A DNA stretch of 64,000 nt, taken from the NCBI GenBank assembly GCA_964513515.1, contig CAZEMP010000001.1:75336-139335 (forward strand), written 5' to 3'. This document shows, piece by piece, positions 3,882 to 64,000 of the stretch. The position numbers and the translations under genes were made by a program. The notes beneath the pieces are model-generated. The model had not been told where the DNA came from, made no database searches, and saw only the letters and a list, made by a program, of their open reading frames with translations. This DNA comes from an uncultured Candidatus Saccharibacteria bacterium. GTDB lineage: Bacteria; Patescibacteriota; Minisyncoccia; Phycocordibacterales; GWA1-40-21. Numbering within the stretch: the stretch's first letter is position 1; the number at the start of each line of letters is the position of its first letter.

Positions 3882-5891
3882 ATGGATAAAATATTTAATT
3901 CAAAACTTACCTATTGGGCAGTTGGCATAGTTTCTGGATTAATCGTTGTTATATCTTTTAGTTTTGGATTATTTAGCGGTATTGAAAAATATTTTGAAGA
4001 TATTTTAGTCTCTCCCAAACAGATAAGCTCAGATATTGTGATTGTAGCGATTGATGACGAGTCTATTTCAAAGATTGGGCAGTGGCCATGGCCAAGAGAA
4101 GTTTTTGCTAAAGCCCTAGAATCACTTACATATTATAAACCAAAAGTTGTTGGTATAGACATTGTTTTTTCTGAAAAATCACGTCTTGGTATTGACGATG
4201 ATCAGAAGTTGGCTAAACAATTAAATAAAATTAACTTCCCTTTAATCCTAGCTTCAGAAGCTCATAAAACAGAGCGTTATCCTGATAATATATTTAAAGC
4301 ATCTGACTTTTTATTACCATTAGAAATATTTTCATCATCAGATATGGTTTATTTGAGCCATGTAAATTTGTTTGTAGACCCAGATGGTGTGGTCAGACAA
4401 TTCCCTATTAAAATTGAGTTAGAAAAAAATGATCTTAAAAAAATATTTAATAGCTTTTCATATGATTTGTCATTATTAGGCAAAGGAGAAGTCAGTCTTG
4501 ATAGTATTAGCAATATAGTAAAAATAGTTTATTCCAATGAACCAGGGAAAATCAGACGTATACCATTCTGGCGAATATTAGAAAATACCAATACCGATTT
4601 AAATCTTGATGAAAAAATAGTCTTAATTGGAGCTACGGCGCCAGATTTGCACGATGAACAACTTACACCTTTTTCAAGAGGGATACCTATGCCTGGTGTG
4701 GAAATTCAAGCTAATATTGTAAATATGTTTTTAAATAATTACAGACTGACGGATATTCCTACAAATTTCATGGTTATATTAATTTTGATTGTTGCCCTTA
4801 TTACTACAGCTATATTCAATCTTACATCTGGAATATTAAAACCGGTTTTAATAAATCTTGTTTTATTTTTTATTTATATAGTAGGGATAATTTTTACATT
4901 CGAAATAGGCGTTGTGGTTAACTTAGTTCATATTAGTTTTGCCTGGATATTATCTGTAATATCACAAATATTGTTTAGATATTTTCTTGTTGAGAAAAAC
5001 AAAAAAGAGCTGAGAGATGTTTTTTCTAAATATGTATCAAAAAGTGTTCTAGATGAAATATTAATAAATCCCAAAAATATTAAGCTTGGTGGTGAAGAAA
5101 AAGTAACAAGTATTTTATTTTCGGATATAAGAGGTTTTACGACACTTTCAGAAAAGATGTCTCCGACAGAACTTACCGATTATTTAAACAGATACCTTAC
5201 CTCAATGACAGATGTTATTTTGGCAGAACGTGGGTTGATAGATAAATACGTGGGTGATGCAATTATGGCGTTTTGGGGTGCTCCACTACCAAACCCACAC
5301 CATGCATTGGATGCTGCGAAAGCCGCCATTAGAATGATTCAGGTACTAAAAGTATTTAATAGTGAAAACAAAGCTCTTGGAAAGCCAGAGATAGAGATTG
5401 GTATAGGTATTAATTCTGGTCGTGTTGTTGCTGGAAATGTCGGATCTCGTGAAAGACTTAGCTATACACTTATGGGAGATTCTGTGAACTTAGCGTCACG
5501 TATTGAGGGTTTAAATAAAATATATGGTACGAGTATAATAGTGAGTGAGTTTGTAATAAAAAATATTGGAAAAGATGTACTATTAAATAATAAAATATTT
5601 TTTAGACTCATTGATACTGTGAAAGTGAAAGGTAAAAATCAGGGCGTTTCTATATATGAGATATTTGATAATGAAAGAAATAATAACTTGGCAGGTATTA
5701 TTGAAGACTTTAATATTCTTTTCAAGGATTATCAGTCAGGAGAGTGGAAAAAATCCCTACAAATGATAGAGAAGATACTGAAAATTAGGCCAAATGACGG
5801 TCCAACAATTTTACTAAGAGAACGCTGTGAAGAATTTATAAAAAACCCTCCAGAAAAATGGTCTGGTGTTTTTGAACTAACTTCAAAATAA
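3882..5891 (+). CDS. CHASE2-sensor class III adenylate/guanylate cyclase
   Basis: TM segment, a periplasmic CHASE2-like region, a cluster of TM helices, then the cyclase core FSDIRGFTTLSE...YVGDAIMAFWGAP...GINSGRVVAGNVGS...YTLMGDSVNLASRIE. Confidence 0.8.
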   Translation: MDKIFNSKLTYWAVGIVSGLIVVISFSFGLFSGIEKYFEDILVSPKQISSDIVIVAIDDESISKIGQWPWPREVFAKALESLTYYKPKVVGIDIVFSEKSRLGIDDDQKLAKQLNKINFPLILASEAHKTERYPDNIFKASDFLLPLEIFSSSDMVYLSHVNLFVDPDGVVRQFPIKIELEKNDLKKIFNSFSYDLSLLGKGEVSLDSISNIVKIVYSNEPGKIRRIPFWRILENTNTDLNLDEKIVLIGATAPDLHDEQLTPFSRGIPMPGVEIQANIVNMFLNNYRLTDIPTNFMVILILIVALITTAIFNLTSGILKPVLINLVLFFIYIVGIIFTFEIGVVVNLVHISFAWILSVISQILFRYFLVEKNKKELRDVFSKYVSKSVLDEILINPKNIKLGGEEKVTSILFSDIRGFTTLSEKMSPTELTDYLNRYLTSMTDVILAERGLIDKYVGDAIMAFWGAPLPNPHHALDAAKAAIRMIQVLKVFNSENKALGKPEIEIGIGINSGRVVAGNVGSRERLSYTLMGDSVNLASRIEGLNKIYGTSIIVSEFVIKNIGKDVLLNNKIFFRLIDTVKVKGKNQGVSIYEIFDNERNNNLAGIIEDFNILFKDYQSGEWKKSLQMIEKILKIRPNDGPTILLRERCEEFIKNPPEKWSGVFELTSK

Positions 5892-61415: not shown

Positions 61416-63116
61416 CTATTTCAGGTCATCAACACTCGTATCTGGAACAATAGGTCTTATCTTCCAGAACTTCTTATGAAGAGTGTCTATGGTTTCCTCA
61501 AGCTCCTGACTCTTTAATAGTTTTAAAATTACCACAAGAGAAGCTATACCAATGATTCCAGAAACAAATCCTTGCATAAAGATACCAATGAGAGTATTTA
61601 GATTAAATACATCATCAAATATACCTAAGCATAAATATGAAATAAAACCCATAATCACTGAAGCTGAAAAACTTTGAAAAAGTGTTTTATTAATAGAGGA
61701 CGAAAAACCAGGATTTTCCTTTTCAAACCAAAACCAAAGAATAATACAATCTATAATTTGAGCTAATGAAAAGCCAAGGGCCAACATGAGTATCTCTGTT
61801 CCTGGTATGTCATCAACTCTAAACAAATACTCAATAAAATATCTAAATATATTAAATTCATAAAATATTTTTATAAAAATAAAGGATAAACCTATAGATA
61901 AAATGCCTGTAATAATACCTGCGTATAGAGCTTTTCGTGTATTACCTTTTGCATAATAACCTCGAACAAAAATTAACACGAGAGACTGTGCTGTGACAGA
62001 TAATGCAAATATTGCTAATGCGGCAGCTGTAAGTTTTGTTCCATTCCATCCAAAGGCACCTGCCCCATATATAGATCTTACAATCTGCGCGCGAAGTACT
62101 ACAAAAAGAACAGTGATTGGAACTGACCAAAAAATAATATGACGAACAGCAGCAGATATGTGAGACAAAAATTCTTTATCCTGATTTTTAGAAATGAACT
62201 TTGACAACGTAGGAAAAGCGGCAAGAGAATAACTTACTCCAATAATCGAGAGTGGCACCCCTTGAAGATTACTTGAAAAATTTAAAACTGAAATTGATCC
62301 TATAGTCATAACAGAGGCCATACCCACAAGTGCAAGCATCGTTATTTGTGTCATACCTAGAGTTACTGTTCTTGGTATAGATGTTAGAAAAACATTTTTT
62401 ACTAGTTTAAAATCAAAATTGAGAGGCCACGCTCTAAAAAGATCACTCTTTACAACAAACGGTAATTGAATACTTAAATGCATAAAAGCTCCAAAAACTA
62501 CTCCATAAATTAGACCTTCAATACCAAAAATTGGATATAAGAATACAGCACCAAGTATAATGCCAATATTATAAAAAATAGGACTCAAGGCATAAACTAA
62601 AAATCTTTTTCCTACTTGTGTAATACTCGCAAGAAAATTTGATGTTCCTAGTAATATTGGTGAAAGGAGTAGAATTCTAGACATTTTTATCAGCACTGCC
62701 TGATCTGCAATTCCTGGAAAAATCTTTGGGACAAGATATGGTATAAAAATAAAAACTACCGCACATACCAAAACGATTGTCACTGAAAAAAAAGAAAATA
62801 TACTATTAATAAAATACTTTGTTTCTTCTTTTGATTTTTCTAATCTATCAGAAATAAAAGGAATTAAAACTGATATAGAAACAACGGATGCAACTGTTGC
62901 AAATATAAAATCTGGTATTTCAAACGAAGCATAATACAAATCCAAAACGTGTCCTGTTCCAAATGTACCAGCTAATACTCGGTCTCTTAATAAGGCTAAT
63001 AATTGGGAAAGTATTGCAAATGAACCAAGTAAATATGCAGCTTCTAAAAGCCCGTCTATTTCCTTATAAAAAATATTAAAAAATCTTTTTACCATCCCGA
63101 TTGTAAAATTTTGCAA
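61416..63116 (-). CDS. murJ: lipid II flippase MurJ (MviN)
   Basis: 566 aa, polytopic, with the MOP-family N-terminus typical of MurJ. Confidence 0.8.
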   Translation of the reverse strand: MQNFTIGMVKRFFNIFYKEIDGLLEAAYLLGSFAILSQLLALLRDRVLAGTFGTGHVLDLYYASFEIPDFIFATVASVVSISVLIPFISDRLEKSKEETKYFINSIFSFFSVTIVLVCAVVFIFIPYLVPKIFPGIADQAVLIKMSRILLLSPILLGTSNFLASITQVGKRFLVYALSPIFYNIGIILGAVFLYPIFGIEGLIYGVVFGAFMHLSIQLPFVVKSDLFRAWPLNFDFKLVKNVFLTSIPRTVTLGMTQITMLALVGMASVMTIGSISVLNFSSNLQGVPLSIIGVSYSLAAFPTLSKFISKNQDKEFLSHISAAVRHIIFWSVPITVLFVVLRAQIVRSIYGAGAFGWNGTKLTAAALAIFALSVTAQSLVLIFVRGYYAKGNTRKALYAGIITGILSIGLSFIFIKIFYEFNIFRYFIEYLFRVDDIPGTEILMLALGFSLAQIIDCIILWFWFEKENPGFSSSINKTLFQSFSASVIMGFISYLCLGIFDDVFNLNTLIGIFMQGFVSGIIGIASLVVILKLLKSQELEETIDTLHKKFWKIRPIVPDTSVDDLK

Positions 63117-63236
63117 CCTCTAAATATCTATCTTTCTTATTGTACTATAATTTTTAATTATCACGAAGTAATTTTATTTTAGTGTGTTCGTAATTTACAA
63201 GGGGACAAGCAATCTAAAAATTTATTTTTTGTAAAA

Positions 63237-63373
63237 CCCCCACACCTATCTTGTTATCGTTGCATTATGTTTTTAATATTAATCAATATTAATCTTTGTT
63301 TATTAAAAAAACTTACCTTAGTTATAAATCTTTATTGGCAACAAAAACACAAAAACGAGATAGGTGTGGGGGA
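63237..63373. repeat. 137-nt palindromic unit (CCCCACACCTAT...AT-rich core...AGATAGGTGTGGGG), copy downstream of rnpB
   Basis: The arms are CCCCCACACCTATCTTGTTATCGTTGC and GCAACAAAAACAC...GAGATAGGTGTGGGGG. The pattern repeats at 63512-63647, and a partial motif lies at 63928-63940. Confidence 0.55.
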
Positions 63374-63379
63374 AAAGAA

Positions 63380-63876
63380 AAGGGGGCACCTTTCGGTACT
63401 CCCTTTCCATAACCTTTATACCTATAAGCCGAATTCTGTTTGTTGTATTACTACAACAAGATAATCATCTGTCTGGGCCAAACATTACTGTTTAGCTCAA
63501 GCGGCGCTTCCCCACACCTATTCTGTTATCATTGCTATCGTGTTTTAAGATACTAGACGATATTAACTTTTATTTACTAAGTAGACTTAATATCATTTTA
63601 CAAGTCTCGCTTAGCAACAAAAACACAATAATAGAATAGGTGTGGGGACTCGGCCTTGCACCAAGGTAAGGAATTTTGCCGTTGCACCCTTATGTTGCCA
63701 TAAGGACTATCCACTAGGGATATCTCCATTCTTTCGTCTGGAGCCGTTTCTGTTCGCACCTCTCATATTGCTATGGACGGGCGTTACCCGCTACCCTTCT
63801 CCTCAACTTTAACATTGAGGTGATGTTCGGACTTTCCTCCCCAACAAAGTTGGAGCAATTATCCAATATAAAGGCA
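63380..63876 (-). ncRNA. rnpB: RNase P RNA (bacterial type A-like) containing a 136-nt palindromic insertion
   Basis: Minus-strand motifs GGAGGAAAGTCCGAAC (P4/CR-I), GGGTAGCGGGTAACGCCCGTCC, GTGCGAACAGAAACGGCTCC, GCCGCTTGAGC and ACAGAATTCGGCTTATAGG (CR-IV). P1 pairs CCTTTATA with TATAAAGG. A terminator hairpin lies at 63377-63410. Confidence 0.65.
63512..63647. repeat. 136-nt palindromic unit embedded in the P15-P17 region of rnpB
   Basis: CCCCACACCTATTCTGTTATCATTGC...GCAACAAAAACACAATAATAGAATAGGTGTGGGGA. The conserved RNase P segment GCCGCTTGAGC follows directly. Confidence 0.55.
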
Positions 63877-64000
63877 ACTAAATTATACAATAATCTTTTA
63901 TATTTATCAAGTATTGTTAGGTTATAGTAGGTGTGGGTGATATAGTTTACATGGATGTAAGGAGCGGAGTTCATTCTCTACTCCGTTGACAACTCGCGCT

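Follow-up and report, generated by a model that had tools for sequence, protein, structure and literature searches.

The closest described system to the nuclease-encoding elements reported here is Ssn of Neisseria, with the layout NTS-ssnA-NTS. The authors who described the Ssn nucleases themselves remark on this insertion sequence (IS)-like architecture, and the repeats have not been shown to duplicate target sites or to move (Chenal et al. 2025, PMC11893778). Concerning RNase P RNA, heterocystous cyanobacteria have STRR heptamer repeats in helix P12 of rnpB (Vioque 1997, as cited in PMC2858038), and helices P16/17 are absent or variable among functional RNase P RNAs (PMC2858038, Table 3). 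In the stretch of 64,000 nucleotides analysed here (hereafter the window), the rnpB gene carries a hairpin unit (unit A) in the place of P16/17, and a second unit (unit B) lies behind its terminator. We propose, with a probability of about 75%, that both are non-autonomous copies of a mobile family with terminal inverted repeats (TIR) of Patescibacteria (Paceibacteria), that the full-length members of this family bear a nuclease gene, and that a copy has replaced P16 of rnpB. This repeat family is spread over many lineages of Patescibacteria, whose genomes are streamlined, and a literature search returned no description of it and nothing specific on such elements in Patescibacteria or in rnpB.

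The rnpB gene of the window

The RNase P RNA gene rnpB (bacterial type A) extends from position 63409 to 63874 on the minus strand and measures 466 nt, unit A included. It matches the Rfam model RNaseP_bact_a (RF00010; gathering score 100 bits) over its full length (model positions 1-367) with 125 bits and an E-value of 7e-38, and contains the conserved blocks GAGGAAAGUCCG, ACAGAAA and ACAGAAUUCGGCUUAUAG. A first-pass annotation, made from the letters alone, had recognised the gene and its strand from such blocks; its extent of about 63380 to 63876 is revised here, positions 63373-63403 being the terminator hairpin and T-run. The rnpB genes of relatives without the unit score 106-130 bits on RF00010, and all except one are outscored by the gene of the window. 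Outside P16/17, every conserved region and helix is intact, including P15, P18 and P4, whereas P17 and its loop L17, the source of the P6 pseudoknot in type A, are replaced. The GGU motif of L15, which binds the 3'-CCA of tRNA, is absent from the window gene, where the strands of J15/16 read GAGU and AAGC. These strands are GUG and AGY in all relatives of the clade, likewise without GGU; the missing motif is a trait of the clade and the insertion is not its cause.

A putative promoter is located upstream (63882-63910, minus strand), called by its agreement with the consensus: a -35 box TTGATA (63905-63910), a 17-nt spacer and a -10 box TATAAT (63882-63887), which ends 7 nt ahead of the first base matched by the model. 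The intrinsic terminator (63373-63403, minus strand), as read from the sequence, is composed of GGGAGUACC-GAAA-GGUGCCCCC followed by UUUUCUUUU, and its hairpin and T-run are kept in all relatives. The next gene downstream is murJ (lipid II flippase; 61416-63095, minus strand), and PF03023 is present in all its homologues. This gene was used as the synteny anchor to find relatives, and the order rnpB-murJ is kept in every relative that was fetched with its upstream flank.

Two related units at rnpB

Unit A (63510-63647, minus strand) is 138 nt long, with arms at 63636-63647 (5') and 63510-63521 (3'). In the RF00010 alignment these arms, CCCCACAC and GUGUGGGG, fall on the P16 helix and about 105 extra nucleotides occupy the place of P17. 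The first-pass annotation had described a unit of 136 nt in the place of P15-P17 and had proposed a covariance model to define its position. With this model the hairpin unit is placed at P16-P17, P15 is retained and the length becomes 138 nt. Unit B (63237-63372, minus strand; 136 nt) has 13-bp arms at 63360-63372 and 63237-63249, is oriented as unit A and begins right behind the terminator T-run of rnpB, where a second unit had indeed been noticed. The description of the two units as near-identical does not hold, 101 of 138 columns being identical (73%; 69% without the arms); within the family, each is nevertheless the best match of the other. The fold prediction, also suggested at first pass, gives a long hairpin for both units (-50.1 and -46.9 kcal/mol for A and B, z about -7.5), and unit A is still predicted to form its own independent hairpin when the whole RNA is folded.

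The ends of the family, (C)CCCCACACCTAT, measure 12-13 bp and are perfect in both units. Exact copies of the 12-mer CCCCACACCTAT number four across the 64 kb, and these are the arms of units A and B. When up to 2 mismatches are allowed, 9 matches are found versus 1.5 expected, and none of 100 shuffles reaches 9. The same arrangement of rnpB and units is displayed by another assembly, L080, which over 12,091 nt differs from the window by 3 mismatches (99.975% identity); an assembly artefact is thereby excluded. The partial arm reported in the 5' flank of rnpB is a solo 12-mer, ACCCACACCTAC (63927-63938, minus strand), that matches the arm at 10 of 12 positions and lies upstream of the -35 box. 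No partner arm was found for it in the window, nor upstream in L080; it may be a remnant. The genome of the window has two units and one solo arm within 64 kb, all at rnpB.

Empty sites in related genomes

The closest relatives recovered are L068 and L081, with MurJ proteins 85% and 82% identical, respectively. The comparison of related rnpB genes, another check put forward at first pass, reveals a 15-nt P16 hairpin at the position of unit A in both of them and in L072, L076 and L077 (short form GUG-CCUAC-YUCGU/UUUAU-GUAGG-AGY). Of the rnpB genes compared, those of the window and of L080, its near-identical twin, are the only ones with unit A. No target duplication is recognisable at unit A, which is flanked by GAGU and AAGC. 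Since unit A lacks a target site duplication (TSD) and is swapped exactly for the 15-nt hairpin, simple insertion is insufficient as an explanation.

Concerning unit B, the filled site in the window is CTTTTC-TTTT-unit-TTTT-ACAAAAAA. The right copy of the TTTT duplication is at 63233-63236 (minus strand) and the left copy, at 63373-63376, is the end of the terminator T-run. The position is empty in L081, the closest readable relative (CTTTTC-TTTT-ATTAAAAAA), and in the more distant L078 (CTTTTC-TTTT-GTAAAAA) and L073. The sequence TTTTCCACACCCG behind the terminator of L068 was considered as a possible remnant of unit B; its similarity to the unit is not significant (reached by 16 of 500 shuffles).

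Several related lineages carry a different hairpin of about 135 nt, designated type-1, in their rnpB genes. It occupies two sites, P16/17 and the hairpin between P5 and P7, and contains many G-U pairs. The type-1 insert shares only CCnnACACCU/AGGUGU with the unit family of the window.

A dispersed family in Patescibacteria

In the GTDB genomes, 67 other loci have exact 11-nt arms with a spacing of 95-125 nt, and almost all of these loci belong to metagenome-assembled genomes (MAGs) of Patescibacteria. As many as 5 exact copies are present in one representative genome, where they lie on different contigs. The dispersed units are intergenic; none of the 67 is located in rnpB or near rnpB motifs. 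Between inverted ends of 12-13 bp, unit sizes range from 37 to 145 nt and interiors from 13 to about 120 nt, short units (37-85 nt) with the same arms having also been found. Tandem units with a 6-nt separation are seen repeatedly.

The 6-mers adjacent to the arms agree as direct repeats at 4.13 of 6 positions versus 2.46 ± 0.14 for permuted flanks (2000 permutations, maximum 2.94). About 80% of flank-repeat positions 2-5 match, and the base adjoining the 12-bp arm is C in 82% of cases on the left and G in 87% on the right. The C and G beside the 12-bp arms, together with the matching positions 2-5, indicate ends of 13 bp and a duplication of 4 bp. The arm-6 nt-arm junctions between tandem units had suggested a tyrosine-recombinase site. 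This identity, like that of an integron attC or a dif-like site, was rejected because the flank repeats vary from copy to copy; the arms do not match the R/L cores of attC (GTTRRRY) either.

The recurrent neighbours of the units are housekeeping genes (the mraZ-mraW-ftsI-mur cluster, thrS, typA and uvrC), and a tRNA gene lies beside a unit in a single case (L061). No known transposase was found near the units in the roughly 8 kb examined per locus, so that a conventional transposase was discarded among these neighbours. A REPIN/RAYT system was rejected as well, since TSDs are present and no Y1 gene occurs among the recurrent neighbours within the same 8 kb or so. The search of viral contigs for carriage by phages or plasmids gave no match. 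The Rfam search of the unit returned only chance matches resembling microRNA precursors, far below threshold. According to our own reading of the neighbourhoods, orientation relative to the flanking genes is mixed, about 6 units being co-directional and 7-9 opposite. A small-RNA gene or another strand-specific RNA function was rejected on account of this mixed orientation and of the lack of a promoter or terminator common to the flanks; G-U pairs are also not clearly above other mismatches in the variable stem. A DNA uptake sequence was discarded, only four exact arms being present in the 64 kb.

The pairing of the unit stem is maintained. Columns 13-19 of alignment A2 each display 4-5 pair types, the enclosing 20-bp end helix is 97% paired, and double-sided changes in the stem number 121 versus 37 ± 5 in shuffles. 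The 7-8 bp beside the ends thus remain complementary though their sequence is free, and the interiors are interchangeable and unrelated between subfamilies. A crossing pairing GYUUUU/AAAARC inside the units contains one co-varying pair (CG 21, UA 12); rather than a pseudoknot, this motif may reflect descent from the nuclease ORF described below, at its 5' end (CTTTATGTTCTAAAAAGC in L084).

Elements encoding a GIY-YIG nuclease

Elements of 311-323 bp share the ends of the family, and their sole gene encodes an 84-aa GIY-YIG nuclease. They were found in four independent contexts, each with direct flank repeats matching at 6 of 6 positions (ATTTAT in L011, GTTATC in L084, GTTGAC in L091 and GATAAC in L101), and the contig L110 contains an element-GATAAC-element junction. 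The arms are present on both sides of the gene in all four contexts of close nuclease homologues. The ORF consists of a single domain, PF01541 (Pfam GIY-YIG; E-values 1e-18 to 1e-20). Homologues in more than 100 clusters show 71-86% identity, and their length is nearly always exactly 84 aa. In L020, a homologue with 50% identity lies between inverted repeats of another sequence, 23 nt long. A sequence search of the PDB gives only the UPF0213 proteins 1YWL and 1ZG2 as the best solved relatives (E-values 3e-5 and 2e-4). No GIY-YIG homologue occurs within the 64-kb window, and the nuclease elements are linked to the units by their shared ends and a weak similarity of the interiors.

The 311-323 bp element is a candidate for the autonomous form of the family, and its nuclease likely recognises the family ends. 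From these shared ends we infer that the nuclease could also mobilise the units. To our knowledge, GIY-YIG enzymes are not known as transposases, and those characterised make no 4-nt staggered cuts. A bolder reading, which we hold only tentatively, is that the 311-323 bp elements form a new prokaryotic IS class whose transposase is the 84-aa single-domain GIY-YIG protein, the 37-145 nt units being its miniature derivatives. If this were true, they would be the smallest autonomous DNA transposons known. The class would have 13-bp inverted ends, a 4-bp TSD and a preference for targets that resemble its own ends (TGTGG-ATAAC), and the Ssn-type repeat-gene-repeat loci would gain a demonstrated mobile ancestry.

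Origin of the units and fate of the RNase P RNA

What the sequences establish is the membership of the units in a dispersed family, the TSDs of this family, the sites that are empty in relatives, the association of the nuclease gene with the family ends and an intact core of rnpB. On the proposed account, one copy (unit B) would have landed directly behind the rnpB terminator by an ordinary insertion that duplicated TTTT. Unit A would be a sister copy that has taken the place of the small P16 hairpin in the RNase P RNA. Its perfect, G+C-rich 12-bp ends would form the P16 helix and the remainder a long A+U-rich extension directed away from the catalytic core. As P15, P18, P4 and the conserved regions are untouched, the ribozyme most likely still works, and the long extension of P16/17 probably leaves RNase P active. 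The low copy number (no representative genome has more than 5 exact copies) counts against a mobile element. The distribution of the units, their TSDs, orientation and empty sites and the candidate autonomous partner nevertheless support the view, already offered at first pass, that a MITE-like element has invaded rnpB.

The opposite suggestion of that annotation, a lineage-specific giant helix that was later duplicated, would make unit A a native P16/17 expansion needed by the RNase P RNA and the source of unit B and the dispersed copies. The type-1 hairpin of related lineages lends it something: its many G-U pairs fit a structure at the RNA level, and its presence at P16/17 and between P5 and P7 implies that both positions tolerate or favour long helices. 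The suggestion does not fit the window, and we regard it as most improbable. Within rnpB, unit A is restricted to the window and its twin; five relatives, among them the two closest that were recovered, keep the short hairpin. Distant genomes have these arms at 67 loci, none of them in rnpB, and the arms also bound a protein-coding element. Unit B, in addition, has a TSD and an empty site in relatives. The distribution of units thus already contradicts this reading; neither an ordinary clade-wide P16-17 variation nor an absence of copies elsewhere, which the first pass had named as what would refute its own observation, was found. It is just as improbable that this rnpB is a pseudogene inactivated by the insertion, RNase P being supplied from elsewhere. 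Only 64 kb of the genome are in view, and a second rnpB or a protein-only enzyme could lie outside. Still, the helices and conserved regions outside P16/17 are intact, the score exceeds that of all relatives but one, the putative promoter and the terminator are present, the locus is 100% identical in two strains that differ elsewhere, and other functional RNase P RNAs lack P16/17 or vary in it (PMC2858038, Table 3).

Two further readings are unlikely, though less so than the preceding ones. The insert could be removed or cut after transcription, in the way that RNase III excises intervening sequences from 23S rRNA, leaving an RNase P RNA of two fragments held together by the fold. Like an intervening sequence of rRNA, unit A takes the exact place of a hairpin, and the near-perfect duplex of more than 20 bp at its base would be a plausible substrate of RNase III. 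We know, however, of no natural fragmented bacterial RNase P RNA, and such an excision would be compatible with a mobile-element origin, not opposed to it. Alternatively, the units might be recognition sites maintained by the host for an Ssn-like single-strand-specific GIY-YIG nuclease, like the NTS of Neisseria, and would modulate the fate of single-stranded DNA that enters the cell or is being replicated. The spread of the units would then be a by-product, and their copy in rnpB would have no role at the RNA level. The repeat-gene-repeat layout resembles NTS-ssnA-NTS, both nucleases are small GIY-YIG proteins of a single domain, the complementarity beside the arms is kept with a free sequence as expected of a folded single strand that is recognised, and Patescibacteria presumably depend on DNA uptake. 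Against this, each arm is one half of a long-range inverted repeat rather than a 20-50 nt hairpin of its own, copies are few per genome instead of hundreds, the best solved relatives of the protein are UPF0213 proteins and its membership in cd10448 is putative. Moreover, variable flank duplications and filled and empty sites denote real transposition, whatever other role the arms may have.

Under the mobile-element account, the locus represents a natural experiment for RNase P, in which a discrete foreign hairpin of about 140 nt stands for P16/17 in an essential ribozyme and the relatives with a short hairpin serve as controls. The insert shows which parts of RNase P RNA mobile DNA can rebuild, and unit A and the type-1 inserts together indicate that two neighbouring helices of the RNase P RNA of this clade have been repeatedly remodelled. 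The family also joins miniature elements that make TSDs to a tiny GIY-YIG nuclease gene. With flank duplications and both filled and empty sites in view, the hypothesis that a GIY-YIG nuclease can drive transposition is open to a direct test, for which an 84-aa protein and a 13-bp end suffice.

Comparison with known systems

Like the Ssn loci, the family comprises a small single-domain GIY-YIG gene between inverted repeats, which are also dispersed or clustered in intergenic regions (PMC11893778). In both systems different homologues pair with different repeats, as the L020 homologue does with its own 23-nt repeats. The NTS are self-contained hairpins of 20-50 nt present in hundreds of copies, whereas the ends described here are the halves of one long-range inverted repeat with few copies per genome: the arm CCCCACACCTAT has no internal palindrome and pairs with the arm at the opposite end of the unit. 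Variable 4-bp TSDs and empty sites, observed here, are unreported for NTS in PMC11893778.

The units resemble bacterial MITEs (Correia of Neisseria, ERIC of enterobacteria) in their size of 100-150 bp, TIRs, TSD, intergenic location and absence of an ORF, and in a transcript predicted here to fold into a long hairpin. They differ in a candidate partner that encodes a GIY-YIG nuclease and not a DDE transposase, and in the complementarity conserved next to the ends with a free sequence, the interiors being unrelated between subfamilies. With the intergenic RS/dRS3 mosaics of Neisseria (dRS3-bounded RS units), REP/BIME and REPIN-RAYT, the family has in common conserved short inverted repeats that bound variable cores and tandem arrays. 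It further shares with them a nuclease or transposase gene that is present once and lies between copies of these repeats, and a compensatory maintenance of hairpins. REPINs, by contrast, leave no TSD, while here TSDs are present and no Y1 (RAYT) gene was seen in the roughly 8 kb around each unit.

In 23S rRNA, the intervening sequences of Salmonella, Yersinia, Leptospira and others are also extended stem-loops of about 100-150 nt; each takes over a helix tip of an essential structural RNA, and they occur sporadically among close relatives. They are excised by RNase III, which yields a fragmented rRNA, a fate that would be only one possibility for unit A, and they are not known as members of a dispersed family with TSDs. 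Finally, the STRR sequences of cyanobacteria (PMC2858038) likewise place a genome-wide repeat inside a peripheral helix of a functional rnpB; there, short tandem repeats lengthen P12, whereas here a discrete TIR-bounded element stands in for P16/17.

rnpB and its two palindromic units

The rnpB gene is encoded on the minus strand (63409-63874), where the Rfam bacterial type A RNase P RNA model gives a full-length match (125 bits, E 7e-38). On the same strand a putative promoter read from the sequence (TTGATA-17 nt-TATAAT) lies 5' of the gene, and a terminator composed of a G+C-rich hairpin and a T-run (63373-63403) follows its 3' end. The first-pass annotation had reported a palindromic unit inside rnpB and a second one just downstream, and this observation is real: unit A (63510-63647, 138 nt, minus strand) is located at P16/P17 and unit B (63237-63372), in the same orientation, directly past the terminator T-run. 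In the alignment with the Rfam model P15 is retained, the P16 strands CCCCACAC and GUGUGGGG are the arms of unit A (arms being the inverted ends of 12-13 bp that bound each unit), and about 105 additional nt of the unit occupy the position of P17. The 12-mer CCCCACACCTAT has exactly four copies in the 64 kb, the arms of units A and B, and nine matches with up to two mismatches, against 1.5 expected. A short distance 5' of the -35 box, at 63927-63938, stands a solo arm without partner (10/12 match). Each unit is predicted to form a long, branched hairpin (z about -7.5), and the fold of unit A is preserved in the prediction of the complete RNA. The two units are 73% identical (69% without the arms) and each is the best match of the other within the family. 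The arrangement is the same in L080, a separate assembly differing from the window at 3 of 12,091 positions.

A dispersed, target-duplicating family

Searching a single genome for each GTDB species with the pattern CCCACACCTAT-N(95-125)-ATAGGTGTGGG recovered 67 loci, nearly all from MAGs of Patescibacteria (Nomura-, Kaiser-, Yonath-, Campbellbacteria and others), with at most five loci per MAG, on different contigs. The units are intergenic, many of them wedged between genes with few bases to spare, and no RNase P motifs were found near the units of the scan. Copies oriented by a profile built on their internal asymmetry show mixed orientation relative to the neighbouring genes. Identical arms also enclose shorter units (37-85 nt) as well as others whose interiors are unrelated, and tandem arrays with 6-nt spacers are recurrent. 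The 145-nt unit of one locus (L061, 420-635) directly borders a tRNA gene on its 3' side, and TGCGGG(C/T)A, repeated in the flanks, is the end of the acceptor stem.

Compared as direct repeats, the hexamers bordering the 12-bp arms agree at 4.13 of 6 positions, against 2.46 +/- 0.14 in permuted flank pairs. The match is about 80% at positions 2-5 and about 48% at positions 1 and 6, and the base adjacent to the left arm is C in 82% of cases, that adjacent to the right arm G in 87%. The family is therefore best described by ends of 13 bp, an A+T-rich target duplication of 4 bp and preferential insertion at G-NNNN-C. In unit B the duplication is seen by direct comparison, the site being CTTTTC-TTTT-[unit]-TTTT-ACAAAAAA in the window and empty in two relatives (CTTTTC-TTTT-ATTAAAAAA in L081 and CTTTTC-TTTT-GTAAAAA in L078). 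The dispersed loci, the target duplications and the empty sites support the earlier reading of the units as a mobile palindromic (MITE-like) element. At the unit B site of L068, the closest relative recovered, TTTTCCACACCCG (5830-5845) stands directly past the rnpB terminator; the similarity of the spacer to unit B is not significant, and the motif is either a chance or target-like sequence or a decayed arm.

Eight independent insertions adjoin CTGTGGATAAC or a close variant, a motif resembling both a DnaA box and GGTGTGG, the end of the element itself. A DnaA-like 9-mer occurs within 40 nt of 13 of the 69 units (about 1.7 expected); 4 of these 13 overlap the arm itself. The DnaA-box-like TGTGGATAA(C) abuts arms in L002 (6204), L004 (1644), L016 (5704), L054 (5872), L084 (~1473), L101 (~946) and others, two of these insertions being upstream of mraZ; the motif may serve as a favoured target, be a genuine site for DnaA or MraZ, or combine the two roles. 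The formation of tandem arrays by insertion beside existing arms is in keeping with preferential use of end-like targets.

Elements carrying a nuclease gene

In L011 a fourth arm-bounded element, beside three units, contains an 84-codon ORF encoding a protein with a GIY-YIG domain (Pfam E 8e-20), with the UPF0213 proteins 1YWL and 1ZG2 as best solved relatives. Its homologues, 71-86% identical and nearly all of exactly 84 amino acids, form more than 100 sequence clusters in Paceibacteria. Three homologues were looked up, giving three more genomic contexts, and each time the gene lies in an element of 311-315 bp bounded by family arms and by perfect 6-bp direct repeats: TCCCACACCTAT and ATAGGTGTGGGA (left and right ends) with GTTATC in L084, CCCCACACCTTT and AAAGGTGTGGGG with GTTGAC in L091, and TCCCACACCTAC and GTAGGTGTGGGA with GATAAC in L101. 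The family comprises target-duplicating elements whose sole gene is a tiny GIY-YIG nuclease, the candidate mobilising enzyme. No homologue of this nuclease was found in the 64-kb window. The conserved blocks of the units are weakly similar to the 5' and 3' ends of the nuclease ORF.

A 302-bp element of L020 (1557-1858) carries a 50%-identical 84-aa GIY-YIG gene between unrelated 23-nt inverted repeats (CCCTGTAGTAGAATTTCAGCTTG), and the same genome has five CCCACACC units. This element may be a second nuclease/end pair in one genome; since the homologue has different ends, nuclease and ends vary together. In two short contigs (L108 and L110), which come from two sample series, an element is joined through GATAAC to a second copy represented by its left end, and in L110 (1-714) the orientation of the element is reversed with respect to the flank found in L101. 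Such structures would agree with tandem dimers, with circle junctions or with a flip of the DNA between inverted ends.

Maintenance of the hairpin

Pairing was analysed in 34 oriented copies aligned with one another. Their arms do not vary, and the seven columns that follow inward display four or five base-pair types each; the 20-bp end helix that includes these columns is 97% paired, and pairing drops to 44-61% in slid registers. Double-sided changes number 121, against 37 +/- 5 in shuffles. A dedicated RNA role is disfavoured by the mixed orientation of the units, and no clear excess of G-U over other mismatches was observed in their variable stem. For these two reasons, it is more likely that DNA is where the pairing is required, in the form of a cruciform or folded single strand, or that correction between the arms preserves it. 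A GYUUUU block inside the units can also pair with AAAARC in a register crossing the main hairpin (63636-63660 and 63510-63545 in the window; columns 22-29 with 108-113 of the alignment of family units), with one co-varying pair (CG 21, UA 12). A pseudoknot or other alternative structure may account for this pairing, or the units may retain it as descendants of the nuclease ORF's 5' end.

Unit A and the rnpB of relatives

Because rnpB adjoins murJ (lipid II flippase), the rnpB loci of relatives were fetched via MurJ homologues and a clade-specific P18 pattern; the closest recovered were L068 and L081 (85% and 82% MurJ identity). These two and L072, L076 and L077 share the short form GGCC-GUG-CCUAC-(YUCGU/UUUAU)-GUAGG-AGY-GCC, where the window reads GGCC-GAGU-[unit A]-AAGC-GCC. 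These lineages share a homologous short P16 hairpin, likely the ancestral state, which unit A replaces exactly. No target duplication is recognisable in the flanks of unit A, and plain insertion is therefore insufficient: either selection on the L15/16 loop reshaped the flanks, or the unit entered by recombination.

A different hairpin of about 135 nt (type-1, CCKGGGCAUCUCACA...GUGYGAGGUGUCUGG) is present at P16/17 in L070 (5340-5486), L073, L078, L074, L075 and L079; G-U pairs are numerous in its stem when the RNA strand is considered. A type-1-like unit is located at the P5-P7 hairpin of L074, L075, L077 and L079, some RNAs having both inserts. It is these two positions that pair with each other as the P6 pseudoknot in canonical type A RNA (PMC2858038 describes how P6, P16, P17 and P5.1 are distributed across types). 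L077 has a third large insertion at or near P19, a hairpin of about 125 nt between P18 and the 3' strand of P4 (CACCATTTTGTTCACTGAAAGTG...CACTTTCGGTGAGCAAAAATGG). With inserts at several positions, the peripheral helices of the RNase P RNA have thus been rebuilt repeatedly in this clade. The rnpB-murJ spacer of relatives holds further G+C-rich palindromic units, AACCCCGCCC...GGGCGGGGGTT and others (L070 5610-5680 and 5765-5800; L079 downstream of rnpB), and appears to be a hot spot shared by several families of repeats.

Known parallels

Intervening sequences of 23S rRNA offer a parallel to the way in which unit A takes the exact place of a helix tip. The units match MITEs in behaviour, and their arrays and hairpin maintenance are like those of Neisseria mosaic elements and REPINs. 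The insertion in rnpB is a new form of an already known phenomenon, the STRR repeats in P12 of cyanobacterial rnpB being the RNase P precedent (Vioque 1997, as cited in PMC2858038), and the element family is more interesting than this insertion itself. The closest known system is the Ssn family of small single-domain GIY-YIG nucleases, which cut single-stranded DNA beside a hairpin repeat that also flanks the genes encoding them, an IS-like architecture remarked on by the authors (PMC11893778). The protein of the present family may belong to cd10448 or be UPF0213-like. Whereas Ssn repeats are self-contained hairpins, the arms described here are half-sites; the present family further differs by its clear target duplications and empty sites and by its low copy number.
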